Source of the DNA: Macrostomum lignano
Lineage: Eukaryota
Direction: 5' to 3'
Assembly: GCA_002269645.1 (NCBI GenBank)
Contig: NIVC01000781.1
Location: 142,491-206,490, forward strand
Length of the DNA: 64,000 bases
Shown one piece after another: positions 25,857 through 64,000 of the stretch; positions within the stretch are counted from its first letter, which is position 1; each line of letters opens with the position of its first letter. The notes beneath the pieces were generated by a model. The model worked only from the letters and a program-made list of their open reading frames with translations. It ran no database searches and was not told the DNA's origin. The translations under genes were made by a program, and so were the position numbers.

Positions 25857-26884
25857 TCAACTGCTGCTGGCTTACTATTAATAGTAGTTTATTAAGTAGC
25901 TGAGCGTTTGTATTTTTGTGTTTGTAAAGTACATTTTCCAGTTTCTTTATCAACGCGACAAATGCTTATTTAACCCGCTGAAAAGGTTACCGTGACAAGA
26001 ATCGCTAGAGAGTCATTGCAAAAAATTCTCTAGTGACTCCATAGCTACTGCGGGGCGACTCCTGTGACTTTTTAGCGACTCAAACGACTGTTGAGTCACG
26101 AGCGCATCACGTGAGTTGCAGAATGATAAAAGAGTCTTAAAGAAGACGTCCAAGAGTCATTGCGTTAGCGGCGTTAGCGCTTAACTTTCTACTAATTCGT
26201 TTGACACGCGATTCTGATTCATAAAGTGGCGCAGATGCGCTTTAGACGCAACTCAGTGATTCTGCAGCGACTCCAGCACGTCTCAGCTATGACTCTACGG
26301 CCCCAGAGTCTTTGGCTCTTTGACGACTTTTACCGTGACATCTCGTCGGTTTAGAGTCGTCTAAGAATCACTTCCTTCCAGGTTTTACCTGTGTTAGCAG
26401 CAGCGACTCTTGGTGACGCAAGTGACTCGGGATGGTCTAAAGTAGGTACAGTTTTCATCGGTTGGTCTCGTATTTATTGTGCAATAATTCTATTAAAACA
26501 TGCATTTTGTATTTACTTATTAATAAAACGCCTGATTAAATTTACTGTTACCTTTGTTCCATGGCAAATTGTAATAAAGAAAAACTGCAGATATTAATTT
26601 ATTATTTGTTATTGCTCAGACAATAGAGGCCCGTAGACAAGAAAGTAAGGATTGATTGAAATCGGTTAATACTGCGAGCGTAGTAGCTCTGCCAATGAAA
26701 TATTGCTACAAATGGATTTTAAATTGATTCTGAACCAACTACAAATTGGTTTGATACTAGTGGGTAATGCAAACCCGGCCTTTTCTGGAATTAATCAATC
26801 TAGTCTTTGAGCTTAATATCGGTTTATGCTCTATGTACATCATACTTGAGTAGAATGCATGAGGGGGCTTCTGGGACAAAATTT

Positions 26885-27360
26885 TCAACGTCCTCCATAA
26901 TCCCATTAAATCCATGTATATTATCCCCGACAGAATCAGAAAAAAAGGGGGGTCGCACTCGCTCACAAAACCTCCTCCATAATCCACCTAAATCCATCCA
27001 TATTATCCCTGACAGAATCAGAAAAAAGGGGGGGGGTCGCACTCGCTCACAAAACGTCCTCCATAATCCCATTAAATCCATGTATATTATCCCCGACAGA
27101 ATCAGAAAAAAAGGGGGGTCGCACTCGCTCACAAAACCTCCTCCATAATCCACCTAAATCCATCCATATTATCCCTGACAGAATCAGAAAAAAGGGGGGG
27201 GGGTCGCACTCGCTCACAAAACGTCCTCCATAATCCCATTAAATACATCCATATTATCCCTGACAGAATCTTGAAAAAGGGGAGGGGTCGCACTTGCTCT
27301 GAAAACTTCGAACATAATCCTATTAAATCCATCCATATTATCCCCGACAGAATCAGAGCA
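26885..27360. repeat. ~83-bp tandem repeat (about 6 copies, alternating variants) with G7-10 tracts, subterminal in Polinton A
   Basis: Unit starts at 26895, 26977, 27061, 27143, 27228, ~27312. Confidence 0.9.
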
Positions 27361-27814: not shown

Positions 27815-28678
27815 TCACATTCTCTCAATGATCAACGTCAATACAAACTCTTCACCGTTGAAATCAACGCCCATCCCATCTTCAGTCTCAAACTGTAGCA
27901 CAATCTCGTGAATCTCCTTATTACTCAATACAACTCTTTTCACTGGATTTGGTTTCTCTACCACCATCTGTCCTCCAGCTACAGAGTTGGAGATGTTGTA
28001 CAAAATATTAGTTCGCTTTCCCTTAAATACCCAATCAAGACTGAGATTAGTTCTGATTAGAATATTCAAACCCTTTACAATGTCTGCTATATTGGGTGCT
28101 AAGAATAAACCGCGTACACTTTCCCGGGCCATGATAACGGCCCCCGTCGCTTGAGTGACAGTCCGCGCCGCGGATTCTGCATTATAAACTTTCTTCTCGA
28201 ATCCCAATTCCCTATACCAAGTGTCATCTTTAAACTCAACCTCCGCATCTTTGTGAACTTGCATGACCACTCTCATTACAGTGAGGTCATAGGTTAGTTT
28301 TACAGGGAACAGTTTTTTATCTGGCTTACTCGCATCAGGTGTCTCAAAATGGCCTCTTTTAGTAAAGACGTTTTCTAGAAAGTAATTGTAGGTATCCACA
28401 CTTTGCGTGCTAACAGGGAATACCACAGGTTCTGCTGCTGCACCTTTCCATTTGTAATAAAACTTATTATTTGCTGCCGTCACATTGGGAACGTTTGACC
28501 AACCAGTGAAGTCGTTAAGATAGACATGGTAATTAGCACCTGGATCCAGGCGAATCGCCTTCTCTAATTTTTGAATAAATATCCCGTTTGAGTCATTAAT
28601 TCGCCCAGTTATTGTAATAGGAATGCTCTCCTTGGAGTGCGAAATAATATTATTTAGTCTTTCAGCAATCGCTTCTAT
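27815..28678 (-). CDS. Polinton A penton/minor capsid protein (start codon appears mutated to ATA)
   Basis: Frame stays open upstream of the track ORF: (I)EAIAERLNNIISH...AIRLDPGANYHVYLNDFTGWSNVPNV. The C-terminus VDFNGEEFVLTLIIERM parallels B penton YDFDGEEIFINLHVRQI. Confidence 0.7.
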   Translation of the reverse strand: MEAIAERLNNIISHSKESIPITITGRINDSNGIFIQKLEKAIRLDPGANYHVYLNDFTGWSNVPNVTAANNKFYYKWKGAAAEPVVFPVSTQSVDTYNYFLENVFTKRGHFETPDASKPDKKLFPVKLTYDLTVMRVVMQVHKDAEVEFKDDTWYRELGFEKKVYNAESAARTVTQATGAVIMARESVRGLFLAPNIADIVKGLNILIRTNLSLDWVFKGKRTNILYNISNSVAGGQMVVEKPNPVKRVVLSNKEIHEIVLQFETEDGMGVDFNGEEFVLTLIIERM

Positions 28679-28698
28679 TTTTTGTCCTAAAAAAATAT

Positions 28699-29275
28699 TT
28701 AAACTTTACTGGATGAATTGTTGATCATGTTAAGCTTCACCTTCCTCTCAAATGCATAGATAATGTACAGGTCCACGGGTGTTGCGACAGTCCTCTCAAT
28801 GTTAGTCACGATATTCACAGGGCTGTTATCAGTAGGCATTTGTCTGGCAGACACATCAGCGCCAAACATTGGATATAGAGTTCCATATTGAAGAGCAGTG
28901 ATAGCAATTCCGTTGTTCTCTTTCACAGCCAAGTCGACCAACTCGCTGTAAAATTTGCTAATCTTGTTCTGACTGAAATCTCCATTTTGTGGCAGTGCAG
29001 GGTAAAGATTATCACTGATTTCATGCTGAATGGACCGCACGTCTCCATGCATGTAGCGTATAATGCTATTTGGGTTTCTCATATTAATAATGATATACCT
29101 TGGATTGCTGCATGATCCCTCTTTAATGCAGATGTTTGTTCTAGTTTCGTTTCGCTCATCTCGACACATGTAGGCCGTGTATGCAACATCAATTTCCTTC
29201 TCTATTGCCTTGAGATAATCCGCTTTTAGTGCGGTCTTTGGCTCAATGACTTCCAAATACACGATTCCGGTGTAG
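28699..29275 (-). pseudogene. Polinton A major capsid protein, C-terminal half only (5'-truncated)
   Basis: LYPALPQNGDFSQNKISKFYSEL...LYPMFGADVS matches the MCP C-terminal pattern and B MCP; no N-terminal half upstream. Confidence 0.65.
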
Positions 29276-29279
29276 CTTC

Positions 29280-30449
29280 ATAAATGAGGAGCAACAATCC
29301 TACAATGAGTTTGTCCAAGCAGCCACCGAATTTCACAAACCCGGATACACAGAAGCGAAGAAAAACCTCGACACTGTGAAGGAAGCAGTTGATGATATTC
29401 AAGAGAGCCAGTTGCAAAACACATTGGGTACAATCCCATCTTCACCAGGACAACCACAGGCTCAGGAACCAGGACAACCAGAAGCACAACCGGTGCAGAT
29501 GAAAGTGACGGATAACTTTTTTGGCCCCGTAGTGGATGATGGAAAATATATTTTTGGAATTAGCGCCTGGCGAAAATATATTACAGGGGAACCGGCGGAT
29601 TACAACATTGAAGTGACAAAGGAAAATATTTCAATCAATAAAGGCGCAAAAACTAAAAGAATCCAGTTCACTCAAACTTTACTTGATTACATGACTAAAA
29701 ATCTAGAGAAAACGTCTAAAAAGCAGTTCGAAAATTACAAAGATCTTGTTACCTTTGCTCTCGATAGGGACATAGATATGCTCAAGAACAACGATGTTTT
29801 GAAAATTTTACATGAAAACAGGATTGTCTTGAACAATTTTAAAAAATACAAATACTTTAAACAATGGTTTGGTTTACCGGATCAAGAAGAGGTCATAAGA
29901 CAACAAACACAACAACCACCACAACAACCACAACCACATCAGCAGCAACCACAGCAGCAACCACAGCAGCAACCACAACAGCAACAACCACAACAACAGC
30001 AACCACAGCAACAGCAACAACCACAGCAACCTCCGTCTCCACAGCAACAAAAAACCCAGGTTGAACAAGTACTTGATCAACTTGACACTGTAGACCCGAT
30101 TCTTGTTTCGCAGTACAAAGATAGAAACCCTGATACTTGGCGACAATTAGAACAGTTCTCCCCAGAACGAATGAAGCGAATCAATGACAGAGTATTCACA
30201 CCTAGGCTACAGCAACCCTCACCAGGAACATCCTTCTCTGACCAATCATTCGAATCACCACCAAGCTCTTCCGGAAAAGGCATGCCTGAAGTCTACAAGC
30301 GGCTAGTTGTTCTCCTAGGTGCAGCAAAGACTGGAATGAAAGATGAGAATAGAAAAGAGTTCGTTCATATCCTAGACAAAATGCTTGAGAGAAAATACAT
30401 CGATAAGAGGGCGAGAGAGCTTCTGCTTTCGCGGTTCAACAAAATATAA
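29280..30449 (+). CDS. Polinton A conserved protein with poly-Q tract (5'-truncated)
   Basis: Open frame from ~29280 (EEQQSYNEFVQAATEFHKP) to C-terminal YKRLVVLLGAAKTG; homologous to B 57609-58333. Confidence 0.65.
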   Translation: MNEEQQSYNEFVQAATEFHKPGYTEAKKNLDTVKEAVDDIQESQLQNTLGTIPSSPGQPQAQEPGQPEAQPVQMKVTDNFFGPVVDDGKYIFGISAWRKYITGEPADYNIEVTKENISINKGAKTKRIQFTQTLLDYMTKNLEKTSKKQFENYKDLVTFALDRDIDMLKNNDVLKILHENRIVLNNFKKYKYFKQWFGLPDQEEVIRQQTQQPPQQPQPHQQQPQQQPQQQPQQQQPQQQQPQQQQQPQQPPSPQQQKTQVEQVLDQLDTVDPILVSQYKDRNPDTWRQLEQFSPERMKRINDRVFTPRLQQPSPGTSFSDQSFESPPSSSGKGMPEVYKRLVVLLGAAKTGMKDENRKEFVHILDKMLERKYIDKRARELLLSRFNKI

Positions 30450-30468
30450 TTTATTTCAAGTAAAAATG

Positions 30469-30843
30469 CCACTTATTTTTGAAAAAGACATTGACAAATA
30501 CTATGACAAAGATGAACTTAATCTCATTAAACGCGGATCTGGACTTTTCCCTGCAGCCCCCTATCCAAGAAAAGAACGCTCTGGGAATGGCCTTGCCGAT
30601 TTGATCGCTCAGGGGGCCAAGATTTTTAAGGTCATTGGAGAGAACAAAGAGAACATCAAGAACGTTGCCGAAGCGGCCGGCAGTGTAGCCACAGCAGCCA
30701 AAAAGATAAAGGATACTGTAACACCTAAACAAGAGATTCAGCCGCTGGCCCCGTTGGCCCCAAATCCAGACAGTGTGGACCCTGCAGTCTATGAGAAGAT
30801 GAGAGCTAGCATTAAAAAAGGAAGTGGTTTCAAATTTGACTAA
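30469..30843 (+). CDS. Polinton A small amphipathic-helix virion protein candidate
   Basis: MPLIFEK...RGSGL...SGNGLADLIAQGAKIFKVIGENKENIKNVAEAAGSVATAAKKIK...KGSGFKFD; TAAAAATG start. Confidence 0.6.
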   Translation, partial: PLIFEKDIDKYYDKDELNLIKRGSGLFPAAPYPRKERSGNGLADLIAQGAKIFKVIGENKENIKNVAEAAGSVATAAKKIKDTVTPKQEIQPLAPLAPNPDSVDPAVYEKMRASIKKGSGFKFD

Positions 30844-30864
30844 ATGGTACTTTCCGAGGGTACA

Positions 30865-30975
30865 AGACAAGTCCCAAAATGACATATTTAAGTCCCGAAA
30901 TGACACATCTAAGTCCCAAAATGACACATCCAAGTCCCAAAATGACACATCCAAGTCCCAAAATGACACATCTTC
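30865..30975. repeat. 21-bp tandem repeat (AAGTCCCAAAATGACACATCC)n
   Basis: About 5 copies between ORFs. Confidence 0.85.
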
Positions 30976-31011
30976 TAAATGATTTATTATTTAATTTTTT
31001 TTCATCATAGA

Positions 31012-31815
31012 AAAATGGACTTTTCAAACGACTTCAATCCTCACTGGACGCGTAATCAGATTAAGTTTTCTCATCACGAGTCAATCCCGAGTCACTTCAG
31101 ATGCATTGTTGTTGGTTCATCAGGTTCAGGTAAAACATTCAGAGTCTTTAACATGCTTCTTAGACCTGGCTTTATCGACTATGACACTCTGCACATCTAC
31201 TCTCCCACACTGTATCAAGATGAGTATAAAATGCTGATTTCTGGATTGCAAAACAAACTGAACAAAGAGGACATTATTCAATGTTTTAATAACCAACAAA
31301 ACCTTCCCAGTAACCCAGAAATGGTTGCTGCCGAATATGCAAAGCACCTTAAAGACAATGAAAAATGGCAGAACATCAAAGTGTTCACCTATGGAGATCC
31401 GCAGGCTGATCCAAAGACCAAACTTCTACCCCAACCAGATGAGCTAGAAAAGGGGAGAAAGCATTTGATCGTCTTTGATGATTGTATGACAGGCCCACAG
31501 AAGCAGATAGAAAACTATTTTACAAGAGGGCGACATAACAATTGTAATGTAATTTACATTGCACAGAACTGGTTCGAGCTCCCGAACAAAACAATTCGTG
31601 GGAACTGCAATCTGATTCTCCTGTTTCCAACCATTCCACAGGACAGGCTAAAAAGATTTTACAATGAGGTCATTGCGCCTGCCTATTTTATAAATTCAAC
31701 AAAAAACTCAAACAGAAAGATTTCACAAGAGGAATTCGTTAACCTCTGCTACGAAAAGTGGAACCAACCCTATCAGTTTGTCATGTTCAACAAGGAGAAA
31801 AGAACTGTAATTTAA
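31012..31815 (+). CDS. Polinton A A32/FtsK-HerA-like DNA packaging ATPase
   Basis: Walker A GSSGSGKT, Walker B LIVFDD, RGRH arginine-finger motif, YIAQ. Confidence 0.92.
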   Translation, partial: KMDFSNDFNPHWTRNQIKFSHHESIPSHFRCIVVGSSGSGKTFRVFNMLLRPGFIDYDTLHIYSPTLYQDEYKMLISGLQNKLNKEDIIQCFNNQQNLPSNPEMVAAEYAKHLKDNEKWQNIKVFTYGDPQADPKTKLLPQPDELEKGRKHLIVFDDCMTGPQKQIENYFTRGRHNNCNVIYIAQNWFELPNKTIRGNCNLILLFPTIPQDRLKRFYNEVIAPAYFINSTKNSNRKISQEEFVNLCYEKWNQPYQFVMFNKEKRTVI

Positions 31816-31831
31816 AATTTGCTATTAAAAG

Positions 31832-32593
31832 ATGTCTATTAATTTTGCAGGTGAATCCATTTCTGGCAACAACGCTCTTACATCAGCTCAAATATCCATC
31901 CTTGACAGGCGATATATCAACAGCGACGAAAAGATCCCAGAGATCAAACTGAATAAAAACAGACTGAAACAATTAGAGCGCTCCATGCACCAGTTGCAAA
32001 TAAACATGGAAGATCTTAGGCTTAAAGTAGCTAGGCAGAAGTTTGAAAGTGATAAGCTTTATGTACAGGTTGTACACGCAACTAATGAACTAAGGTCAAA
32101 AATAACTTCGATAGTCTCGCTAATCAACGGCTTGAGATCATCAGTTAATCTCCTGGGAAATTCCACTGATAGACGGATGCGTATTCTTGAAGGAGGGGTT
32201 TTCACAAACACAGCTAAAGTAAATAATTTAGAAGAGTTCATGAACCAGTCAACAGCGTTGCATGATAGAATTAAAGAAAACGTCGCAACCAACACAGGTA
32301 AAGTGAGGAATTTAGAAGAGTTCATGACTCAGTCAACAGCGTTGCATGATAGAATTAAAGAAAGACTTGCAGCATTAGAGAGAAAGGATGTATCACACAG
32401 TAGCTATCTAAACGGAATGTATAGCTCTTGGGGTAAAATACTAAGGAGGCTTGATCGTCTGGAGAGAACACTCAATCTTCGTGATATTGCTATTGATGAA
32501 GCAGAATCTACTGCTCGTCCGGTCATTTCTACAGATGAAATTATCAAATTTCATCAAAATCAAATCAAATCAAAAGAAAACAGATCTTTTTAA
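31832..32593 (+). CDS. Polinton A coiled-coil protein, putative fibre/spike
   Basis: N-terminal LDRRYINSDE resembles B fibre ADDRYINENE; internal duplication TNT(A/G)KVxNLEEFMxQSTALHDRIKE; same gene neighbourhood as B fibre. Confidence 0.5.
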   Translation: MSINFAGESISGNNALTSAQISILDRRYINSDEKIPEIKLNKNRLKQLERSMHQLQINMEDLRLKVARQKFESDKLYVQVVHATNELRSKITSIVSLINGLRSSVNLLGNSTDRRMRILEGGVFTNTAKVNNLEEFMNQSTALHDRIKENVATNTGKVRNLEEFMTQSTALHDRIKERLAALERKDVSHSSYLNGMYSSWGKILRRLDRLERTLNLRDIAIDEAESTARPVISTDEIIKFHQNQIKSKENRSF

Positions 32594-32636
32594 AACCGGA
32601 TAGTTTTATAATTTTTTATTTTTTCTACGGAAAAAA

Positions 32637-33356
32637 ATGGCCCAACAAAATTCTCTATACGATCAGTCTCAATACGCTGAACCTAAAATACCGACAGCAC
32701 CAAACTCAATGGCACCGAATTCGAACACACAAAGCCTGAATGCACCGAATCTGAATGCACCTCAATATGAGCAACAAAAACTCTACCCCATCATTTCTTG
32801 TAACTCTCAACAATTTCGATTGGTGGAGATTCAAAAAATGCGAGATGACATTGAAAAAAATATTTTCCACAACACAAAGAAAATTGAGCGCTATAACAGC
32901 CACTGTAAATTTTTCGACTACAGCAATATGATTCTAGGATCTGTGTCTGTTCTATCTGGATCTGCTGCGGCTGTCTCAACGTTGCCAGTCATCACAGCCC
33001 CAATCGCAATCCCGCTCAGCTCTGTGGGTGCTGCGTGTGGACTTATTTCAGCAATTACTGGAGCATTAGCGCGAAATAGGCGAAAAAAACTAAAGCAGCT
33101 ACAGGAGAAGCAAGTAAAAGAGAAAGGGGTGCACACATCAATCATAGGGTACATTTCAAGGGCAATCGAACATAAGTTCATTTCAGAGGATGAGTTCAAA
33201 ACCATTCAGGATCTTTATGAACAAACAATTCGAATGAACTTGAACATGGTCGGTACTGATGACATGAGTCAGTTGAGAAATGAACTCGAGAAAGTTCTTC
33301 AACATTATGCGGAAAGAAAGTCGGCAAGAAGGAGGGTGAGAAATGCGCCACAATGA
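32637..33356 (+). CDS. Polinton A conserved membrane protein (hydrophobic helical hairpin) with PTAP and LYP motifs
   Basis: KLYP...FRLVEIQ, then hydrophobic ILGSVSVLSGSAAAV...IAIPLSSVGAACGLISAITG; homologous to B 54231-54971. Confidence 0.7.
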   Translation: MAQQNSLYDQSQYAEPKIPTAPNSMAPNSNTQSLNAPNLNAPQYEQQKLYPIISCNSQQFRLVEIQKMRDDIEKNIFHNTKKIERYNSHCKFFDYSNMILGSVSVLSGSAAAVSTLPVITAPIAIPLSSVGAACGLISAITGALARNRRKKLKQLQEKQVKEKGVHTSIIGYISRAIEHKFISEDEFKTIQDLYEQTIRMNLNMVGTDDMSQLRNELEKVLQHYAERKSARRRVRNAPQ

Positions 33357-33360
33357 ACCC

Positions 33361-33762
33361 CTATGAAACACAGCCAAGAATAATTTCCTTGTAGGTCTTT
33401 CGTGTTTTGGTCATTGCATACAAAACAGTCATGCACAGCTCACCGCAAATATCACTGCTAAGACCTTGGAGAATAAAGTCTGAGCGATAAATTTTTTTAT
33501 TATTTTTCCCCTTCATATAATTTCTTAGCTCTTCTGGTACTGCCGTCCCATAGCTATCGAAGTAATAACACTTGTGCTTGCGATCGGGATCAATCACCCA
33601 GCAAACCCAATGAGATCCTGGCTTATCGGTGGTGTCAAAGTTCATGATGCCGCATTCTTTTCTTAGAGGAAAATCAGGCAGAGTGTCCCTCGTAAATATT
33701 CCTCTAAAGTTTGGGATTTCCAGTTCGTTAGCCAAATCTTCAAGAAAGTTATTTGTCGTCAT
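33361..33762 (-). CDS. Polinton A adenain-family cysteine protease
   Basis: GSHW (His), YFDSYG (Asp), Q-x5-CG (Gln/Cys) catalytic motifs intact. Confidence 0.92.
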   Translation of the reverse strand: MTTNNFLEDLANELEIPNFRGIFTRDTLPDFPLRKECGIMNFDTTDKPGSHWVCWVIDPDRKHKCYYFDSYGTAVPEELRNYMKGKNNKKIYRSDFILQGLSSDICGELCMTVLYAMTKTRKTYKEIILGCVS

Positions 33763-33932
33763 TTTTATGTCATTTTTATGAGGTTTATTAAACTTTATCT
33801 TAAACCTAAACCCAACCTCCAGTGGCCGACCCTAATCTCCAGCTCCTAAACCTAATCTCCACCTCCTAAACCTAATCTCCACCTCCTAAACCTAATCTCC
33901 AGTGCCCGAACCTAACCTCCACCTCCTAAACC

Positions 33933-36900
33933 TTATCTCCAGTGCCCGAACGGTAGACTGTTAATATTGTCATCAAAAATGAATCTCTTGTTATCTGCAC
34001 CCGACAGTCCAATCTTCTTTTGCTGAATTGTGTGAATAATATGGTTTTTAGATTGTAGCTTTGAGAACTCATGTGATGTCTTTTTGTTGCAATTCAAGGC
34101 GTCCCTGTATTCAGCTTCATTAATTTCCTTCCTAACCACACGTTTCGGAATTCCCTTTGATTTTTTTATTGGGTCTGACGACTCACATTTTACAAAATAG
34201 GACTTTGCTCTCAACCCAATGAATTCCGTGATTATGTCACCAGCAATCTCGTCCTTCATTTTCCCAATCACTTTCTTGTTAGTAGCGTCAAACACTTGAT
34301 CGCCATTCTGTGTCCTGAAAGATTCATCATACTCAGACAAGTCAAACAAATCTTTTTGCTGCAGCATGTCCTGATAAATGTCTTCTGTTTGAATGTCCAT
34401 AATAAAACTGTCTGTGTCAGTGTACAAGAGTTTCATTTTATCCTTGTACTGCTGCTTCATGCCATAGAAGAACTGGTACATCAGACGTTTTGATTCGTCG
34501 AGAACAATGACACCTGTATAGATCTGCTTGCGCAGTGTCACCTTGGTTTTGTAAAATATGATCACACCCAAGTAGCTATTAAAGATATGGAGTTCTTTGA
34601 ATGTTGGCTTTGACATATTTGCTTGAATAACAGCAGGCTCTGATGAGGTAACAAGTTTCAGGTTTGTTCTTTTCCGCTCATTCTCAAGAGTCTTGCCATA
34701 GACAGAGTTGTTGGCCAACTTAAAGAGGTTCTTGTCAAACTCGTTGGTTGCTTTGGTCCTAAACTGGGTGTTCTTATCAATGTAGGGTTTCATCCACGCT
34801 TCCTCTGTAAATGTAAGAGCCCTGTGAACTTTGGTGACCCTGCAACCAAGTGAGATAAAATACTGAAGCAGTTTGTAATGGATTTTGTAACGTGTCTTGT
34901 TGTTTAGATTCTGTGTTAGTTTCTCTGTATGTTCTTTTTCTGTTCCTGACAGGCGCCAAGTTCCATTGGGAGTTTCGATTATTTTCGGACACTTGATGTT
35001 CCCTGGGAAGGGTGGAAAGTCAGGGAAATAGTCGTGAAGCTCTGGTGGAATGTAAACATCAACCTCATAAATGGCAGCCAATGAAAAGTCCCATTTGAAT
35101 TCTGATGAGGGTAGCCATCGAAAATCTCTAACTGGAAGATCTTGACTCATCGCCCACCCGTAGAGATTATTAGCGTCCAAGTAAGTAATGTAGTTTGAGG
35201 GCTGCTCCTTATTGTAAGATTCAATGTAGGGATTGTTCGCTTTTGCATACCTGTTAACACAAATTGAGATCCCCCCTCGCTTTGACGATTCGACAAAATT
35301 GTACATTTCAATATCTGTAAGAAGTTCAATGTACCAATCTGGATCTTGATCCCATTTCATTTTAAGCAAAGATTCCCAGCTAGTGGCAGGCAGAGACACA
35401 TAATGTGCTGGATCGAAGCCATATGCTGTGTACCAGGTGTATCTGAAAGTTTCAAACACATCGGCCAGCAGAAACACATCTGTGAAGAGGTAAAGCAGGT
35501 GATACTGGAAGAAGTTTTGACAATTAAAGTAATTATAGACATGCTTCGCGTGCTCATAGTCTTTGTCAGAGATTCCAGAGTCTGTTAGCTTTGAAAAGAA
35601 CTTCTCCTGTGGTGGTAAACCTTCTTCAAATACGTGATAACGAGTAATATTCTCATAGGGGTAGAAGCCTTTCTTTCTTAAAAGTTTAAATGATTCATCA
35701 GTGTTGTTAATTTTACTTGCAAATATCTTTGTATATGTACATTGTTCATCTTTTAGATTCTTGCTTAGTTCGTCTAGACTGGCAGCTAGAAATTGATATG
35801 AATCCTTCAGTCTTATTTTACCTTTACTGTTACCCGAATTATCCTGTTTAATATCAACACACTTAAACTTCTCCTTGTTCTCTGCGATGCAGTCAAGGTG
35901 TATGTCTGGAATCATGCCGATTTTTTCAACTATTAAATGCATGTCATAGTTCTTTGCGTTGTGACAAAATATCGTTAGATCATGAATGTTGGATTTTAGC
36001 TTTAGATTACAGGTGTTATGCGCTGCACCTCTAAATTTCCCAGTAAAGTGGCAGTGGTCCCTAACGGTTGGGTTTTTAATATCAGTGCAAGTTAACTGTT
36101 TCCTACAGATGTAGCAATGAGTTGCTGATAGGAAATTGCTTTCATCCTCCTCAGACATAATTATTGGAACAGGCTGAAGGGTGCTAATTACTCTTTGCAA
36201 CTCTAACATTCTGGCAATAAACTGCTCCACACACTGGTCTCCAAAGAAATAATTATACTCATCAAGTCCTTTTGTATTAATAAAGGCATATGCTACTGAA
36301 TTGAGGACATGTCTTTGAGTTTGAGTTTGTTTTTGAGTTTCTGGCATGATTGAGCATTCGAAATCAGCATATACAACAAATGGGAGCTTCTCCATCTTGT
36401 GATAGTTCTTAAAACGGAGATACTTTTCTTCAGCTGAAGGAAGAGAGCAGTTGGTCGGGTGATCCTCACATGATAATTCATGCTCTGCTAGTTTTTCAAT
36501 GCGCTCAGGTCCACTGTAATGCTTAAGGCACAAGCGGCAGATGGCAACAGCCTCGTGATGATTATTCAACTGCTTGTGAATGAGTATTGAAAGATCTTTA
36601 ATCCAAACATAGTGAGCCTCCTCTAGTAAATTACCAATCACTAGAAGATCAACCTCAGTCCGCCTTTTCCCCTCAGGATCTAAAACGTCTTTGCTACATC
36701 TGACCGGTTGAACTTTCTCAGTTTTTTCACTCCACTCAAAGACTGTGATTCTAATTTTGTTATTAAACACTTCTTCTAGTTTTGGAATCTGAGAGATCGC
36801 CAAGCCTCCTTTGTCAAACCTGATCCCCTTCTTTTCACATTCGATAAGATAGTACTTGAAATAATTTTGATAATTTGAGGTTCTTTCGGGGTGGTGAGGG

Positions 36901-37329
36901 ACACTATCATGATGAAGTGCAGAAAGAACTGCCCATAGAGCACAGCAATTGTCTTTATTTTTAACATTTATGCAAGCTTTTTTGCCGGCTAGCTTATGTG
37001 GGAGCTCTATATAAGAGGAGGCTTTAAGTGGGTCATATTTCATGACCATGACAGTAGCTCTTTGAATCCCTCCCACGACCCATCCGGAACCTCTGGATGT
37101 AAACGCTTCAATTTTCTTAGTGACATCTTGAAGGAAAGGATCCAGCGTGTCTGTAGGGGTGAATGGCTTTGCCTTTGTTGTCATGTAATACTCGAGATGC
37201 TCAGTGGGTTTCGCAGGCATATAAAACGCAATCTTGAATGATATCTGTAGTTTAAAAGTCTTGCGTGTTTTAAGTGTGTGATCAACAACTGATTGGATGC
37301 TGTCTTTATAGTCGTAGATGTTTGCGGTG
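33933..37329 (-). CDS. polB: Polinton A protein-primed DNA polymerase B, 5'-truncated by the Polinton B insertion
   Basis: YADFE, HNAKNYD, YLDANNLYG, KLANNSVYGK, YTDTDS, and an EndoVII-like CYIC...HCH...CN segment. The frame stays open from the track start (37220) up to the insertion at 37329. Confidence 0.95.
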
Positions 37330-38093
37330 AGTAGTATAGGAAAAGTAGGTTTGAGCGCAACCCATTTTGAAAAATCACAAAAAACAGATAAAAATCGACT
37401 AAAAACAGGTGAAAATTGTCTGAAAACAGTGATTTTAGTGATTTTTCAAAAGTTTTGAAAAATTGCTTTTTGCGCGATTTCGTGAGTAAAACCACAAGAA
37501 ATTTTTGATTCGTGGGTTAAAATAACCTATTTTCAGGTTTCATCATTTCAAAACTAGCATCAAATTTAATAATAGTCTTTTCTCCCATTGCATAACGCCC
37601 TTCAATAAGCCAATCTTACTAGCTTTGCTTTTAACGATCAGTCAGCTACCATCTATGCATAAAAATGGTCCACTCGAGGCATACAATGCTTTTACAAAAG
37701 TCAATAATTTGCTCCTGCACATTCGCTTTGTCCCGAGGCTTTGAAATGGCTTTAATGCTGTTCTAGATTTGTACTTAAAGATAATAGAAGACATTCAAGA
37801 ACATGGAGCGCTAATTTAAATTTTTCGTGGCAAGCATACTCGACTACTAGAGCACTAACCGCAGCACTCAACATTTCTATTGGCTGCCAAAATTTCTGCC
37901 AAAACCAAAATTTTTGCCAAAATTTCTGCCAAAAAGTGTTTGGTTTTGGCATCCAATAGGAGTGGCTCGTGCAAATCTTTTGTGTTCACCCTCTATCTAG
38001 CTGTAAAAAAAGACATAAAGTGGGCCACGCAAGTTACAAACGAACAATGCTCGCGACCCTACCTACGGACGATTTCACTAACCCTTTTCTAAA
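37330..38093 (+). repeat. Polinton B left TIR, part 1 (continues at 47260-47395)
   Basis: Near-identical reverse complement of 63231-63997. Confidence 0.95.
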
Positions 38094-38709
38094 TCCTATA
38101 TACTAAAAATGGTCTGTCTGTGTCTATCTATCTATGTGATAGATTAGAGAAAAAATGGCTGGACCGATTTTGTTCGAACTTGCACTGTTCGATCAGAAAT
38201 TTTCCCGTGACTGTACATGCATCGTGGCTAAGAAATTGCTCGATGCTAAAGGCATTAAATATTCGAAAAACATGCTTTTTTGCAAAGGTCAAGCAGCTCT
38301 TTCGACTTGAAATGCATTGTAAGAATGCTAGAGAAAAAACTGACTGGTTGAATTCTGATTCTGAAATGATTGCATCATAACTGAATTGTAACTCCGACTT
38401 GAATTGAAAATGCAGTGTGGAAGCATAGCACCAGACTTGATTTAAATTGCGTAACCATATTGTTAACTGATACTGACTGACTGAGAAACTGATTATGTCA
38501 TAACTGTTTCGTGTGATTTACTCTATGCTTGGATTTTAAAGTGTTGAATTATATAAGTGCAAAATTTGATGTTATCAAAACGATGAGAGCTAGCCTAGAG
38601 GTGAACAAACTGAACTGCTAAATGCAGCGACGATGGTTCGAATTTTCATAGAGTATAATTTTTTTAATTAAAGCTTTTCAACGTCAGGAAAACTAAAAGA
38701 CTTTTTAAA

Positions 38710-41700
38710 AAGAAGCGTCATGTAAAAATCATAGATGCGTCATTTAAAAAAATCATAGAAGCGTCATGTAAAATATCATAGAAGCGTCATGTAAACAATC
38801 ATAGAAGCGTCATGTAAACAATCATAGAAGCGTCATGTAAACAATCATAGAAGCGTCATGTAAACAATCATAGAAGCGTCATGTAAACAATCATAGATGC
38901 GTCATTTAAAAAATCATAGAAGCGTCATGTAAAATATCATAGAAGCGTCATGTAAACAATCATAGAAGCGTCATGTAAACAATCATAGATGCGTCATTTA
39001 AAAAATCATAGAAGCGTCATGTAAAATATCATAGAAGCGTCATGTAAACAATCATAGAAGCGTCATGTAAACAATCATAGAAGCGTCATGTAAAAAATCA
39101 TAGAAGCGTCATGTTAACAATCATAGAAGCGTCATGTAAAAAATCGTAGAAGCGTCATGTAAAATATCATAGAAGCGTCATGTAAACAATCATAGAAGCG
39201 TCATGTAAAAATCATAGAAGCGTCATGTAAAATATCATAGAAGCGTCATGTAAAAAAATCATAGAAGCGTCATGTAAAAAATCGTAGAAGCGTCATGTAA
39301 AATATCATAGAAGCGTCATGTGAACAATCATAGAAGCGTCATGTAAAAATCATAGAAGCGTCATGTAAAAAATCATAGAAGCGTCATGTAAAAAAATCAT
39401 AAAAGCGTCATGTAAAAAATAATAGAAGCGTCATGTAAAAAATCAGAGAAGCGTCATGTAAACAATCATAGAAGCGTCATATAAAAATCATAGAAGCGTC
39501 ATGTAAACAATCATAGAAGCGTCATATAAAAATCATAGAAGCGTCATGTATAAAATCATAGAAGCGTCATGTAAAGATCATAGAAGCGTCATGTAAGCAA
39601 TCATAGAAGCGTCATGTAAAAATCATAGAAGCGTCATGTTAACAATCATAGAAGCGTCATGTAAAATATCATAGAAGCGTCATGTGAACAATCATAGAAG
39701 CGTCATGTAAAAATCATAGAAGCGTCATGTAAAAAATCATAGAAGCGTCATGTAAAAAAATCATAGTAGCGTCATGTAAACAATCATAGAAGCGTCATGT
39801 AAACAATCATAGAAGCGTCATGTAAACAATCATAGAAGCGTCATGTAAACAATCATAGATGCGTCATTTAAAAAATCATAGAAGCGTCATATAAAAATCA
39901 TAGATGCTTCATTTAAAAAATCATAGAAGCGTCATGTAAAATATCATAGAAGCGTCATGTAAACAATCATAGAAGCGTCATGTAAAAAACCATAGAAGCG
40001 TCATGTTAACAATCATAGAAGCGTCATGTAAACAATCATAGAAGCGTCATGTAAACAATCATAGAAGCGTCATGTAAACAATCATAGAAGCGTCATGTAA
40101 ACAATCATAGATGCGTCATTTAAAAAATCATAGAAGCGTCATATAAAAATCATAGATGCGTCATTTAAAAAATCATAGAAGCGTCATGTAAAATATCATA
40201 GAAGCGTCATGTAAACAATCATAGAAGCGTCATGTAAAAAATCATAGAAGCGTCATGTTAACAATCATAGAAGCGTCATGTAAACAATCATAGAAGCGTC
40301 ATGTAAACAATCATAGAAGCGTCATGTAAACAATCATAAAAGCGTCATGTAAACAATCATAGATGCGTCATTTAAAAAATCATAGAAGCGTCATGTAAAA
40401 AATCGTAGAAGCGTCATATAAAAATCATAGAAGCGTCATTTAAAAAATCATAGAAGCGTCATGTAAAATATCATAGAAGCGTCATGTAAAATATCATAGA
40501 AGCGTCATGTAAACAATCATAGAAGCGTCATGTAAACAATCATAGAAGCGTCATGTAAAAAATCGTAGAAGCGTCATATAAAAATCATAGAAGCGTCATT
40601 TAAAAAATCATAGAAGCGTCATGTAAAATATCATAGAAGCGTCATGTAAACAATCATAGAAGCGTCATGTAAACAATCATAGAAGCGTCATGTAAAAAAT
40701 CGTAGAAGCGTCATGTAAAATATCATAGAAGCGTCATGTGAACAATCATAGAAGCGTCATGTAAAAATCATAGAAGCGTCATGTAAAAAATCATAGAAGC
40801 GTCATGTAAAAAAATCATAGAAGCGTCATGTAAAAAATAATAGAAGCGTCATGTAAAAAATCAGAGAAGCGTCATGTAAACAATCATAGAAGCGTTATAT
40901 AAAAATCATAGAAGCGTCATGTAAACAATCATAGAAGCGTCATATAAAAATCATAGAAGCGTCATGTATAAAATCATAGAAGCGTCATGTAAAGATCATA
41001 GAAGCGTCATGTAAGCAATCATAGAAGCGCCATGTAAAAATCATAGAAGCGTCATGTTAACAATCATAGAAGCGTCATGTAAACAATCATAGAAGCGTCA
41101 TGTAAAATATCATAGAAGCGTCATGTAAACAATCATAGAAGCGTCATGTAAACAATCATAGAAGCGTCATGTAAACAATCATAGAAGCGTCATGTAAACA
41201 ATCATAGAAGCGTCATGTAAACAATCATAGAAGTGTCATGTAAACAATAATAGAAGCGTCATGTAAACAATCATAGAAGCGTCATGTAAACAATCATAGA
41301 AGCGTCATGTAAACAATCATAGAAGCGTCATGTAAACAATCATAGATGCGTCATTTAAACAATCATAGAAGCGTCATATAAAAATCATAGATGCGTCATT
41401 TAAAAAATCATAGAAGCGTCATGTAAAATATCATAGAAGCGTCATGTAAACAATCATAGAAGCGTCATGTAAAAAATCATAGAAGCGTCATGTTAACAAT
41501 CATAGAAGCGTCATGTTAACAATCATAGAAGCGTCATATAAAAATCATAAAAGCGTCATGTAAACAATCATAGAAGCGTCATGTAAACAATCATAGAAGC
41601 GTCATGTAAACAATCATAGAAGTGTCATGTAAACAATCATAGAAGCGTCATGTAAACAATCATAGAAGCGTCATGTAAACAATCATAGAAGCGTCATGTA

Positions 41701-42560
41701 AACAATCATAGAAGCGTCATGTAAAAAATCGTAGAAGCGTCATATAAAAATCATAGAAGCGTCATTTAAAAAATCATAGAAGCGTCATTTAAAAAATCAT
41801 AGAAGCGTAATGTAAACAATCATAGAAGCGTCATGTAAAAAATCATAGAAGCGGCATTTCAAAAATCATAGGAGCGTCATGTAAACAATCATAGAAGCGT
41901 CATGTAAAAAATCGTAGAAGCGTCATGTAAAATATCATAGAAGCGTCATGTAAACAATCATAGAAGCGTCATGTAAAAATCATAGAAGCGTCATGTAAAA
42001 TATCATAGAAGCGTCATGTAAAAAAATCATAGAAGCGTCATGTAAAAAATCGTAGAAGCGTCATGTAAAATATCATAGAAGCGTCATGTAAACAATCATA
42101 GAAGCGTCATATAAAAATCATAGAAGCGTCATGTATAAAATCATAGAAGCGTCATGTAAAGATCATAGAAGCGTCATGTAAGCAATCATAGAAGCGCCAT
42201 GTAAAAATCATAGAAGCGTCATGTAAACAATCATAGAAGCGTCATGTAAACAATCATAGAAGCGTCATGTAAAATATCATAGAAGCGTCATGTAAACAAT
42301 CATAGAAGCGTCATGTAAACAATCATAGAAGCGTCATGTAAAAAATCATAGAAGCGTCATGTAAAAAATCATAGAAGCGTCATGTAAAAAATCATAGAAG
42401 CGTCATGTAAAAAATCAGATAAGCGTCATGTAAACAATCATAGAAGCGTCATGTAAACAATCATAGAAGCATTATGTAAACAATCATAGAAACGTCATGT
42501 AAAAATCATAGAAGCGTCATGTAAAAAATCATAGAAGCCTTATTTAAAAACTAATGAAAG
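38710..42560. repeat. 23-bp satellite (ATCATAGAAGCGTCATGTAAACA)n inside Helitron copy 1
   Basis: Period 23 over ~3.85 kb. Confidence 0.97.
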
Positions 42561-43480
42561 TGTCATTTAAAAAATTAGGAAGCATCATGGTAGAATAAAA
42601 GAAGCATCATGGTAGAATAAAAGAAGCATCATGTCAGACATGAAGGGTGTCATGTAAAAATTAAATGCAGCTATAATGCTGTGCTGGGGAGAAAAACTGA
42701 GACGTCAAGGCTCTCAGAGAATAACTGAGATTATGGGTGGGGGGGGGTTTCTGAAATTCTGTGATGTCAAAGCAAAAGTCAGAAGCTACTTCAAAGTTCA
42801 TGTACTTTACTCAATTTTTTATTGCATTCTTTGTTGGCTCGCCACGGGGGGGGCGCTGATAGAAGAAGAGTCATGTAAAAAATAAAAGTAGCACTACGTA
42901 TACATAAAAGAAAAGTCATGTCGAAGTTAAAAGATTCATTTGGGAATTGCTACGAGGTCAAAGCTTGGTGGAAATCGTTATAGTGCTGTGATTCTTAAAG
43001 AAGGAATCACTAAAATGTCAAGGCTTAGGGGAGAAGAATTGCTGAGATTTCAAGGCTTTAGGTTGGGTTAAAGTTAGGTTTAGGTCAGGTGTGGGTTGAG
43101 GGTTATATTTTATCGGGTTTCAAGGTTAACGGGGGATTTTTCAGATTTCAAGGTTTATGGGGGCCATCGCTGACATGTTAAGGCTTACGGGGGGAATAGC
43201 TGAGATGTCAAGGCTCACGGGGGTATAAATAAGATTTCAAGGCTAAAGTCAGAAGCTACATGTAGTTTATTGAAAAATTTTTATTACATTATTTGATGCC
43301 TCCTCAGGGGAGGGATCGCTGATAAAAAAGCGTAATGTAAAAAATAAAAGAAGCTTCATTTCGAAGTTAAGAGATTCATTTGGGAATCCCTACGATGTCG
43401 AGGCTTGCAGGGAATCACTATAATGCTGTAGTAGTGCTATAATGACTCTTAGAGAGAATTATTACTGAAATTTCAATGCT

Positions 43481-43547
43481 TTAGGGTTAGGTTAGGGTTA
43501 GGGTTAGGGTTAGGGTTAGGGTTAGGGTTAGGCTAGGGTTAGGGTTA
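43481..43547 (+). repeat. Interstitial (TTAGGG)n inside Helitron copy 1
   Basis: About 11 near-perfect units. Confidence 0.9.
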
Positions 43548-44344
43548 GAAGGTTGACAGATATTTTTAGATTTCCAAGGCTTATTGGGGGCATTGCTGAG
43601 ATGTCAAGGGGGGGGAATTACTGACATGTCAAGGCTTACAAGGTTTGACAAGAGATTTTTTAAGATTTCAAGGATACATGTAGCTTATTAAAAAAAATGT
43701 GTATTGCATTTCTTTGGCTCCCCAACGGGGGGCGTAGATTGCTAGTCCAATATACTAAAAATGGTCTGTCTGTGTCTATCTATCTATCTATGTGATTGAT
43801 TAGAGAAAAAATGGCTGGACCGATTTTTTTCAAACTTGCACTGTTCGATCTGAAATTTTCCCGTGACTGTACATGCATCGTGGCTAAGAAATTGCTCGAT
43901 GCTAAAGGCATTAAATATTCGAAAAACATGCTTTTTTGCAAAGGTCAAGCAAACTTTTCGACTTGAAATGCATTGTAAGAATTCTAGAGAAAAAAAAACT
44001 GACTGGTTGAATTCTGATTCTGAAATAGATTGCATCATAACTGAATTGTAACTCCGACTTGAATTGAAAATGCAGTGTGGAAGCGTAGTATCAGATTTAA
44101 CTGATACTGACTGACTGAGAAATTGATTATGTCATAACTGCTTCGTGTGATTTACTCTATGCTTGGATTTAAAAGTGTTGAATTAAATAAGTGAAAAATT
44201 TGATGTTATCAAAACGATGAGAGCTAGCCTAGAGGTGAACAAACTGAACTGCTAAATGCAGCGACGATGGTTCGAATTTTCATAGAGTATAATTTTTTTA
44301 ATTAAAGCTTTTCAATGTCAGGAAAACTAAAAGACTTTTTAAAA

Positions 44345-46100
44345 AGAAGCGTCATGTAAAAATCTTCTAGAAGCGTCATGTAAAAAATCGTGGAAGCGTC
44401 ATTTAAAAAATCATAGAAGCGTCATTTAAAAAATCATGGAAGCGTCATATAAAAATCATAGATGCGTCATTTAAAAAATCAAAGATGCGTCATTTAAAAA
44501 ATCATAGAAGCGCCATGTAAACAATCATAAAATCGTCATTTAAAAAATCATAAAAGCGTCATGTAAAAATCATAGAAGCGTCATGTAAACAATCATAAAA
44601 GCGTCATGTAAAAAATCATAGAAGCGTCATGCAAACAATCATAGAAGCGTCATATAAAAATCATAAAAGCGTCATGTAAACAATCATAGAAGCGTCATGT
44701 AAACAATCATAGAAGCGTCATGTAAACAATCATAGAAGTGTCATGTAAACAATCATAGAAGCGTCATGTAAACAATCATAGAAGCGTCATGTAAACAATC
44801 ATAGAAGCGTCATGTAAACAATCATAGAAGCGTCATGTAAACAATCATAGAAGCGTCATGTAAACAATTATAGAAGCGTCAAGAAAAAATCATAGAGGCC
44901 TCATTTAAAAAACATAGAAGCGTCATTTAAAAAATCATAGAAGCGTCATGTAAAAAATCAGAGAATCGTCATGTAAACAATCATAAAAGCGTCATTTCAA
45001 AAATCATAGAAGCGTCATATAAAAATTATAGATGCGTCATTTCAACAATCATAGAAGCGTCACAAAAAAATCATAGAAGCGTCATGTAAAAAATCATAGA
45101 AGTGTCATGTAAAAATCGTAGAAGCGTCATGCAAAAAATCATAGAAGCGTCATGTAAAAAATCATAGAAGCGTCATGTAAACAATCATAGAAGCGTCATG
45201 TGAAAAATCGTAGAAGCGTCATTTTAAAATCATGGAAGCATCATTTAAAAAATCATAGAAGCGTCATGTAAACAATCATAGAAGCGTCATGTAAACAATC
45301 ATAGAAGCGCCATGTAAAAAATCATAGAAGCGTCATCTAAAAAATCATGGAAGCGTCATTTAAAAAATCATAGAAGCGTCATGTAAAAAATCATAGAAGC
45401 GTCATGTAAAAAATCATAGAAGCGTCATGTAAACAATCATAGAAGCCTCATGTAAACAATCATAAAAGCGTCATGTAAACAATCATAGAAGCGTCATGTA
45501 AAAAATCAGAGAAGCGTCATGTAAACAATCATAGAAGTGTCATGTAAACAATCATAGAAGCGTCATGTAAACAATCATAGAAGCGTCATGTAAACAATCA
45601 TAGAAGCGTCATGTAAAAAATCAGAGAAGCGTCATGTAAAAAATCATAGAAGCGTCATGTAACAATCATAGAAGCGTCATGTAAAAATCATAAAAGCGTC
45701 ATGTAAAAATCATAGAAGCGTCATGTAAACAATCATAGAAGCGTCATTTAAAAAAGTCATAAAAGCGTCATGTAAAAAATCATAGAAGCGTCATGTAAAC
45801 AATCATAGAAGCGTCATGTAAACAATCATAGAAGCGTCATGTAAAAAATCATAGAAGCATCGTGTAAACAATCATAGAAGCGTCATGTAAACAATCATAG
45901 AAGCGTCATGTAAACAATCATAGAAGCGTCATGTAAAAAATCAGAGAAGCGTCATGGAAACAATCATAGAAGCGTCATGTAACAATCATAGAAGCGTCAT
46001 TTAAAAAATCATAGAAGCGTCATGTAAACAATCATAGAAGCGTCATATAAAAATCATAGAAGCGTCAAGAAAAAATCATAGAAGCCTCATTTAAAAACTA
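44345..46100. repeat. 23-bp satellite inside Helitron copy 2
   Basis: Same unit as 38710-42560, ~1.75 kb. Confidence 0.97.
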
Positions 46101-46992
46101 ATGAGTGTCATTTAAAAAATTAAGAAGCATCATGGTGGAATAAAAGAAGCGTCATGTCAGACATGAAGGGTGTCATGTAAAAATAAATGCAGCTATAATG
46201 CTGTGCTGGGTAGAAAAACTGAGACGTAAAGGCTCTCAGAGAATAACTGAGATTACGGGGGGGGGGGGGGTTCTGAGATGTCAAAGCAAAAGTCAGAAGC
46301 TACTTCAAAGTTCATGTACTTTACTCAATTTTTTATTGCATTCTTTGTTGGCTCGCCACGGGGGGGGGTCGCTGATAGAAGAAGAGTCATGTAAAAAATA
46401 AAAGTAGCACTATGTATACATAAAAGAAAAGTCATGTCGAAGTTAAAAGATTCATTTGGGAATTGCTACGATGTCAAAGCTTGGTGGAAATCGTTATAGT
46501 GCTGTGATTCTTAAAGAAGGAATCACTAAAATGTCAAGGCTTAGGGGAGAAGAATTGCTGAGATTTCAAGGCTTTAGGTTGGGTTAAAGTTAGGTTTAGG
46601 TCAGGTGTGGGTTGAGGGTTATATTTTATCGAGTTTCAAGGTTAACAGGGGATTTTTTAGATTTCAAGGTTTATGGGGGCCATCGCTGACATGTCAAGGC
46701 TTACGGGGGGAATAGCTGAGATGTCAAGGCTCACGGGGGTATAAATGAGATTTCAAGGCTAAAGTCAGAAGCTACATGTAGTTTATTGAAAACTTTTATT
46801 ACATTATTTGATGCCTCCTCAGGGGAGGGATCGCTGATAAAAAAAGCGTAATGTAAAAAATAAAAGAAGCTTCATGTCGAAGTTAAGATATTCATTTGGG
46901 AATCCCAACGATGTCGAGGCTTGCAGGGAATCGCTATAATGCTGTAGTAGTGCTATAATGACTCTTAGAGAGAATTACTGAAATTTCAATGC

Positions 46993-47062
46993 TTTAGGGT
47001 TGGGTTAGGGTTAGGGTTAGGGTTAGGGTTAGGGTTAGGGTTAGGCTATAGGGTTAGGGTTA
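46993..47062 (+). repeat. Interstitial (TTAGGG)n inside Helitron copy 2
   Basis: About 11 near-perfect units. Confidence 0.9.
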
Positions 47063-47259
47063 GAAGGTTGACAGATATTTTTAGATTTCCAAGGCTTATT
47101 GGGGGCATTGCTGAGATGTCAAGGGGGGGGAATTACTGACATGTCAAGGCTTACAAGGTTTGACAAGAGATTTTTTAAGATTTCAAGGATACATGTAGCT
47201 TATTAAAAAAACGTGTATTGCATTTCTTTGGCTCCCCAACGGGGGGCGTAGATTGCTAG

Positions 47260-47395
47260 TTATGTATCTTAAAAATGGAACAAATAGCAGGAGAAGTTCT
47301 CCTCAAAGCAATTTTTATATTGTGACTCAGCTTTAACGTCGTGCGAAACCCACACTGAGTGAAGCGTATGGTCAAATAGGCTCTCGCAGGAACTC
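47260..47395 (+). repeat. Polinton B left TIR, part 2
   Basis: Reverse complement of 63095-63230; resumes exactly where part 1 stops (CTAAA|TTATGTATC). Confidence 0.92.
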
Positions 47396-49554: not shown

Positions 49555-49960
49555 ATTCACATCGAATACTGCAGTATCTGGTTCTTTTTTGCTCGTTGCT
49601 TTTTCACATCGAATACTGCAGTATCTGGTTCTTTTTTGCTCGTTGCTTTTCACATCGAATACTGCAGTATCTGGTTCTTTTTTGCTCGTTGCTTTTCACA
49701 TCGAATACTGCAGTATCTGGTTCTTTTTTGCTCGTTGCTTTTCACATCGAATACTGCAGTATCTGGTTCTTTTTTGCTCGTTGCTTTTCACATCGAATAC
49801 TGCAGTATCTGGTTCTTTTTTGCTCGTTGCTTTTCACATCGAATACTGCAGTATCTGGTTCTTTTTTGCTCGTTGCTTTTCACATCGAATACTGCAGTAT
49901 CTGGTTCTTTTTTGGTCGCTGCTTTTTCACATCGAATACTGCAGTATCTGGTTCTTTTTC
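49555..49960. repeat. 46-bp tandem repeat upstream of pPolB
   Basis: Period 46 (49621, 49667); no spacers. Confidence 0.95.
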
Positions 49961-56379: not shown

Positions 56380-56806
56380 TTTAATTGCTGCAAAATTTCA
56401 TTATAGCTATCTCCTTTATCGATTCGGTGTAAAAAGTACAGCGACATTTGACCACAAATTTCTTATCAAAAGTTTGAATTTGTTCTTCCATGTCTCCACA
56501 TATTCTATTCTTTGTGTGATTAAACTTTTCCATAATTTCCAGTGTGGGCGGTAGTGCATAGGAATCAAAAAAATAAACCTTATCAGGAGCTGAAAATATA
56601 GCTGAATGATGTATACCCCGTTCTTTCGAAGTGTGAATATTTGTCATAAAGTAACCATACTGTGGTAAATCAACAATTTCATCTCTCATGGCATAGCGAA
56701 ATGGTTTTAACTTGAGATATTTTGCCCAATTTATCAGATCAATATTAGTCGTAGTGTCAGTCCCAAACTTTTGTTTAAATGCATTCCATGTCTCAGCTTC
56801 GCTCAT
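56376..56806 (-). pseudogene. Polinton B adenain protease with one frameshift before the catalytic Cys
   Basis: GIHHSA, FFDSY, QIQ. Adding one T at AAATTTGTGG (~56455) restores KFCGQMSLYFLYRIDKGDSYNEILQQLK*. Confidence 0.85.
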
Positions 56807-56815
56807 TTTTAACAC

Positions 56816-62906: not shown

Positions 62907-63094
62907 GATTCTGTAACGTGGTGCGCTTCGTGTCTTTTTAGAAAGGGGGTGAACACAATAGACTAGCATGAGACGCTCCTATTGGTTGCCAAAACCAAAA
63001 CTTTTTTGGCAGAAATTTTGGTCGCAAGATTTGGCAGAAATTTTGGCAGCCAATAGCAATGTTCAGTGCTGCGGTTATGTATAGTTAGTTTGGT

Positions 63095-63997: not shown

Positions 63998-64000
63998 GCG

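Follow-up and report, generated by a model that had tools for sequence, protein, structure and literature searches.

A Polinton interrupting pPolB in a distantly related Polinton, with the break inside a predicted terminal-protein domain

The locus described here raises the question of what follows when one Polinton lands in the polymerase gene of another, and whether such an event points to chance, to target preference or to interference between the two elements. The window, i.e. the whole 64-kb stretch of DNA that was analysed, is a repeat-rich eukaryotic region which holds a host frame, part of one Polinton (A) and the whole of a second (B), and its last base (64000) lies three bases past the terminus of B (63997). 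It contains three tiers of mobile DNA, namely A, then B and then a Helitron-like element, layered within one 37-kb stretch, in a window that was picked for its nested elements and is thereby biased toward nesting. The features of the locus are as follows.

25281-25853: host frame, GINS2/Psf2-like (Pfam), about 2 kb from the last gene of A
27815-37329: genes of Polinton A, only part of which lies inside the window
27815-28705, minus strand: A, likely minor capsid protein (judged from its position and a weak resemblance to that of B; no Pfam match)
28699-29277, minus strand: A, major capsid protein, C-terminal ~190 residues only (by likeness to capsid relatives)
29250-30449, 30466-30843, 31832-32593 and 32637-33356, plus strand: A, other genes around the ATPase
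30979-31815, plus strand: A, packaging ATPase (PF04665)
33361-33762, minus strand: A, adenain-like protease (PF00770, E 2.2e-4; 21.4 bits against a cut-off of 21.3)
33933-37329, minus strand: A, 3' part of pPolB, 1131 codons (PF03175, E 6e-17), with vOTU, exonuclease and polymerase motifs
37324-37329: left copy of the predicted 6-bp duplication, GCGGTG, the last bases of A before the break
37330-63997: Polinton B, complete, with ends AGTAGT//ACTACT
37330-38093, plus strand: B, outer part of the left terminal inverted repeat, starting with AGTAGT
38094-47259, plus strand: Helitron-like insert, 9166 bp, non-coding, splitting the left repeat of B
47260-47395, plus strand: B, inner part of the left terminal inverted repeat
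50070-53897, plus strand: B, pPolB, open, 1275 aa, in the order terminal protein-vOTU-exonuclease-polymerase
56340-57606, minus strand: B, protease and likely minor capsid protein, one frame break each
58336-59109, minus strand: B, packaging ATPase, open, 257 aa (PF04665)
59134-60490, minus strand: B, major capsid protein (PF21738), in pieces
61347-62705, minus strand: B, rve integrase, open, 452 aa (PF00665, E 7e-10; N-terminal PF08398, E 1.3e-8)
63095-63997, minus strand: B, right terminal inverted repeat, uninterrupted, ending with ACTACT
63998-64000: first three bases, GCG, of the right copy of the predicted duplication, where the window ends

The initial annotation had described a pPolB frame of A that stays open up to 37329 and there meets the AGTAGT terminus of B. 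This was confirmed: the minus-strand frame is open over 1131 codons (33936-37329), contains the peptide that had been quoted from it and abuts the first base of B. The frame reads on into the repeat of B, with a stop near 37446, and the first in-frame ATG of the A piece is at 37220. The ends given for B, AGTAGT at 37330 and ACTACT at 63997, are backed by matched terminal inverted repeats of about 900 bp that are 99% alike (3 substitutions and 2 indel events over 764/767 bp, then a single substitution over another 136 bp), a length within the 100-1500 bp expected of Polintons. At 4 substitutions and 2 indels per ~900 bp between the repeats, the insertion of B is likely to be recent. Ends of the form (AGT)2//(ACT)2, long terminal repeats and a 6-bp duplication characterize Mavericks in the available portions of PMC8097293, 10.1101/2023.08.22.554363 and PMC8502044. 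The 6-bp duplication that had been read at this site (GCGGTG on the left, GCG on the right) is the sole fit to the flanks when lengths of 3-9 are compared (1 of 7 lengths), and the chance of the three-base match, computed from the base composition of A, is 0.0076. The duplication thus appears likely, yet it is half seen, with three of the six right-flank bases visible and matching.

Several comparisons bear out the earlier statement that the event joins clearly divergent Polinton lineages. The pPolBs of A and B are 31% identical over 1168 columns, their packaging ATPases 28% identical over 200 columns and the closest full-length capsid relatives of the two 22% identical, and their gene orders differ. 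A midpoint-rooted FastTree was built from A, B and 59 representatives, chosen at 55% identity from 196 pPolB proteins of at least 1050 aa (out of 239, the 43 shorter ones having been set aside). Four relatives cluster with B at a support of 1.0, and by distance from each other A and B take ranks 59 and 60 of 60, which rules out that they belong to one family. The best pPolB relatives of either element in the protein collection are 27-39% identical, and none were found in the viral contigs or metagenome contigs searched. As far as the window shows, these comparisons support that B interrupts a pPolB gene belonging to another Polinton lineage.

The assignment of A to the Polintons/Mavericks is based on its pPolB, ATPase and protease (PF03175, PF04665 and PF00770) together with the capsid piece, all of which were found; the half of A with its integrase would lie beyond base 64000. 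For B, the ATPase (PF04665), capsid (PF21738) and integrase (PF00665) score above the Pfam cut-off, while the pPolB is recognized by its 31% identity to the PF03175-positive pPolB of A, the presence of the motifs and viral fold matches to adintovirus/MELD PolB; the protease and minor capsid protein have no Pfam match and show weak likeness to those of A (E 4e-5 and 8e-8 when 1.5 kb was searched). The capsid piece of A is 64-76% identical to six PF21738 capsid proteins of 360-438 aa. In all six the match covers only the C-terminal part, residues ~232-438 in the five full-length proteins and from residue 174 in the 360-aa relative, and by comparison with these six relatives the N-terminal ~240 of ~430 residues are nowhere in the window. 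By this measure the copy of A is independently defective through its half-missing capsid gene. The capsid gene and the gene on the opposite strand meet head to head with no space between them (29250-29280), and the capsid loss and the 5' truncation of the neighbour, judged by eye, look as if they came from one internal deletion. The plus-strand frame at 29250 gave no usable match in the ESM Atlas, nothing useful in NCBIfam and no likeness to the gene of B at 57649. No AGTAGT that could mark the left end of A occurs between 25889 and 37329, nor was an informative inverted repeat found; an 84-bp array at 26887-27357 is perhaps part of the terminal repeat of A, with AGTAGA at 26849-26854 as a candidate end.

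Apart from this deletion, the copy of A has the look of a young element. Over 36000-37329 it differs from other copies at 24 or more positions, and among the 21 near-fixed differences (carried by nearly all of the depth) that were kept, 16 fall at third codon positions (P 7e-5). This bias indicates divergence of a sub-lineage under selection, as opposed to decay in place, and thus a young copy; it also rules out sequencing error or decay as the source of the differences.

To place the break within the protein we used a predicted model of residues 1-400 of the B pPolB (mean pLDDT 82). Residues 49-184 of the model resemble the little-finger domains of Y-family polymerases (Z 7.5-7.8, rmsd 2.6-4.4, 94-107 residues aligned) and residues 194-317 resemble OTU proteases (Z up to 7.3), with all these values under 8 and hence modest, within the range called common. 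Both domains agree with the terminal protein and vOTU arrangement of pPolB described in the available text of 10.1101/2024.03.18.585575, from which we place the terminal-protein domain; its marks are a four-stranded sheet with two helices in a little-finger-like fold, followed by the vOTU, and Cys/His motifs are present in both A and B. The surviving pPolB of A starts, by alignment, at about residue 68-84 of B, i.e. at the first helix, with the first strand(s) missing, and the ATG at 37220 lies after the second strand of the predicted domain. The initial annotation had aligned the first residues of A by eye with a helix and strand of B, and a 73-sequence alignment reproduced this; pairwise BLAST of the two proteins begins only at A67/B152. 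Relatives of the pPolB have a median of 150 extra residues ahead of the start of A in the 95 of 240 rows with an end-to-end alignment, with a range of -10 to 188 in rows that are highly redundant. On this model the break would fall inside the predicted terminal-protein domain, with the vOTU, exonuclease and polymerase motifs intact downstream. In both pPolBs (33933-37329 and 50070-53897), as in many of their relatives, there is a match to Endonuclease VII (PF02945) inside the exonuclease region.

Since the gene start has been separated and the predicted terminal-protein domain cut, priming in cis is likely lost. To this extent the earlier claim that the insertion disables the replicase of the resident element stands; it must be tempered in that the catalytic motifs are intact downstream, the copy is independently defective and the deeper A family could supply the enzyme. 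The claim is further weakened by Polintons whose polB was lost to other transposons and which, in the available portion of 10.1101/2025.02.07.637071, seem to be still mobile. Moreover, with half the capsid gene missing and A far deeper in reads than the ends of B, loss of this copy likely costs the A family nothing.

The third tier, which the initial annotation had overlooked at this site, splits the left repeat of B. The insert begins with TC, ends with CTAG, has a hairpin near the 3' end (-5.3 kcal/mol, computed without a shuffle control) and lies between A and T with no duplication, the end marks of canonical Helitrons. A RepHel gene is missing from the insert, in which a single stop-free frame reaches 120 codons or more (129), and the element is thus non-autonomous. 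Most of it consists of a 23-bp satellite, in blocks at 38711-42589 and 44345-46134. The 9-kb satellite block is ruled out as part of B's own sequence, because the right repeat runs on without interruption at the corresponding point. The 5' end of the insert was found in 13-15 contigs with unlike flanks in three of four sequencing runs, at very high depth. The Helitron-like element most likely arrived after B. Two similar end blocks with ~12 TTAGGG units each (43481-43548 and 46994-47063) are seen in the insert, which may consist of two tandem elements or of one element inside another. It shares with non-autonomous canonical Helitrons the 5' TC, 3' CTRR, subterminal hairpin, A/T insertion and absence of duplication (as given in the available part of PMC8969392), and departs from canonical Helitrons in having no RepHel, in its 9.2-kb length and in being mostly 23-bp satellite with short TTAGGG tracts.

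At least 20 of the 24 listed sequencing runs, from seven studies, contain half or more of the sampled words of 34000-38090; no RNA run is among the holders listed, which says nothing about expression. Read contigs over 36000-38200 were compared from four runs, representing at most three samples, one of which is possibly the source of the assembly. Among the contigs listed, loose ends behind 37329 occur in two of the four runs (three contigs in X1 and one in X9); these A contigs continue past 37329 with letters that match nothing in 36000-38200, implying A copies without B at this site. Contigs of the B repeat start exactly at 37330 in three of the four runs (X1, X9 and X13), as expected if the end of B has several flanks. 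No contig among those listed for this interval bridges the joint 37329/37330 in the four runs, which proves nothing, since contigs built from short reads stop at repeat ends by their construction. Depth on the pPolB of A exceeds that on the repeat of B by 45-, 43-, 31- and 11-fold in the four runs (median bin), and by 6.3-fold when single long contigs are compared (X13); summed read depth is no copy number and shows only that A is the more abundant family. Contigs of 2.2-4.5 kb from several runs match pieces of the B repeat (37370-37619 and 37939-38061) at ~86-90%, which suggests that the organism has another, diverged family related to B.

Based on these observations we propose, with good though not full confidence, that B was recently inserted, without targeting, by its own integrase into an abundant and tolerant A, and that a Helitron-like element followed. 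The retrovirus-like integrase of B would have joined its AGTAGT ends to a staggered 6-bp cut in A, and repair would have duplicated GCGGTG, a step suggested by knowledge of the family and the three visible bases. The cut would fall between the first strand(s) and the first helix of the predicted terminal-protein domain of A, leaving a copy that is likely unable to prime its own replication, and in which the coding for the vOTU, exonuclease and polymerase would remain; the loss of half the capsid gene would cripple this copy as well. Later, the non-autonomous Helitron-like element would have entered the left repeat of B, giving the order A, B, Helitron-like element, all presumably recent.

Insertions in repeats escape selection, and because A is likely an abundant repeat where insertions do the host no harm, specific targeting is not likely to have been involved. 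The odds of a random hit range from 0.4 to 45% if A is assumed to make up 0.1-2% of the genome and B to number 4-30 copies. At a share of 0.1-0.2% with ~4 copies they are only 0.4-0.8%, and odds this low would make some target preference possible. The pPolB takes up 36% of the visible length of A, so that an insertion in this gene is unremarkable. To our knowledge, hardly anything has been established about which targets Polinton integrases prefer.

In a competing explanation, which we regard as unlikely, B prefers Polintons: its integrase or a partner would recognize Polinton DNA or chromatin, or B would integrate into freely replicating A genomes at a site of replication common to both, making it a hyperparasite or competitor with broken virion genes. 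Such a lifestyle would agree with the six frame breaks of B, which are all in virion genes, none being in the pPolB, integrase or ATPase (0.0008 under uniform chance). Four of them are frame changes in the capsid gene relative to a 477-aa protein (near 60050, 59890, 59370 and 59280), and the minor capsid and protease genes have one each, the latter judged by eye. However, the six breaks lie within 3.8 kb, outside the 36000-38200 covered by read contigs, and could stem from misassembly of this region or from decay once B was in place. The absence of decay in place in A would put both insertions close in time, as such a preference would have it, and B did land in the priming domain of A. A random hit in A would also be rare if the lowest of the assumed values hold. 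There is also a precedent for targeted hyperparasitism in the Ngaro elements of EMALEs. Nevertheless, this is a single event in a gene that makes up over a third of visible A, and the contigs of B that break exactly at its end indicate several flanks of unspecified kind. The distance between the virion proteins of A and B (22% for capsid relatives, 28% for the ATPase) would make cross-packaging unlikely, and B has no evident gain from knocking out a single, already defective copy in a family of such abundance and depth. With one event at hand, nothing here supports targeting or interference, which the initial annotation had itself, rightly, put forward as inference. Still less credible, in our estimate, is the fuller scenario of a B lineage that has no virion genes of its own, keeps its polymerase, integrase and ATPase, and prefers Polintons as targets, cutting their priming domain, so that one Polinton would parasitize or suppress others in the animal germ line.

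Two further explanations concern the integrity of the locus itself. That the junction is an assembly chimera, in which a collapsed end of B was joined to a copy of A, has in our view a very small probability. It could account for the joint 37329/37330 being unbridged among the contigs listed, with multi-copy sequence on both sides, and for a window that stops three bases after the end of B, and the indel-type breaks in B suggest an imperfect consensus. Against this, the joint is base-exact at the terminus of B with no sequence shared by A and B that might mislead an assembler, three bases at a distance of 26.7 kb match the first half of the left hexamer (0.0076, with only the canonical length of six fitting), and breaks at repeat ends are built into short-read contigs. 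Scarcely more probable is that B did insert in A, but in an A that was a dead fragment before B came, its far half being later lost or rearranged, so that a short remnant at most, or unrelated DNA, would follow base 64000. The large internal capsid loss already present, the lack of a canonical AGTAGT left end between the host gene and 27815 and the 96% of vertebrate-genome Mavericks that are degraded (available text of PMC8097293) would fit such a fragment; the remaining open genes of A and its mostly third-position differences fit a young copy instead, and the three visible bases fit an intact duplication. We accordingly retain an untargeted, recent insertion of B as the preferred explanation.

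Among known systems, the two elements come nearest to the Polintons/Mavericks (polintoviruses, adintoviruses) of animals, which have a pPolB with terminal protein and vOTU, an rve integrase, an A32-like ATPase, a double jelly-roll capsid protein, an adenain protease and long terminal repeats; what sets this locus apart is that two distant lineages are nested in one place. Nesting of Polinton-like viruses (PLVs) and virophages within each other is already published, and what is new here is the break inside the predicted terminal-protein domain. The available portion of 10.64898/2026.07.28.741278 reports five PLVs and nine virophages inside other viral elements of Halocafeteria seosinensis, in multi-tier nests where, as here, one integrating Polisuviricotina element lies inside a different kind and transposons lie inside these, one of them disrupting a replication gene; there the nests lie in a protist and are made up of virophages and PLVs, whereas both elements here are canonical Polintons. 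Tandem Polinton/PLV integrations in sea anemones likewise bring two divergent elements together at one animal locus, though in tandem and not inside a pPolB gene; such loci are proposed, in the part available of 10.64898/2026.10.13.758929, as a substrate for swapping replication and capsid modules between lineages, and the present locus is of that kind.

Mobile elements of other classes also enter endogenous DNA viruses. Retrotransposons nest in PLVs (available passages of PMC12220804), and Ngaro elements lie inside the EMALE virophages of Cafeteria, in one instance in pPolB. The accessible text of PMC8547959 shows statistically the preference of Ngaro, a tyrosine-recombinase retrotransposon (91% for type 1); the present locus provides a single event. 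For EMALEs themselves, which are virophage elements with an rve integrase, no sequence-specific integration has been seen. A search of the literature, limited in coverage and with preprint supplements aside, found no report of a canonical Polinton inside the pPolB of another in an animal. Read as an untargeted nest, the locus cleanly illustrates how two distant Polinton lineages were both mobile in one genome not long ago, and it supplies a dated three-tier order of insertion. Were B-family insertions enriched in Polintons it would matter far more, and one locus cannot show enrichment.

Some minor observations concern the rest of the window. The open frame of the B integrase also encodes an N-terminal phospholipase A2-like domain of the parvovirus type, whereas the PLA2-like genes in the available text of PMC8502044 are joined to a pX-like domain; no report of a PLA2-integrase fusion was found in the literature searched, mostly outside subscription journals. 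A fibre-like gene of B (55100-56379) has by eye about three more frame breaks. Just upstream of the pPolB of B is a 46-bp array of 8.7 copies that are 98% alike (49556-49959), and just inside its right end an 83%-alike copy of part of the B repeat (62939-63089). At the start of the window (2-796) there is a Gag-like frame with a weak PNMA match.
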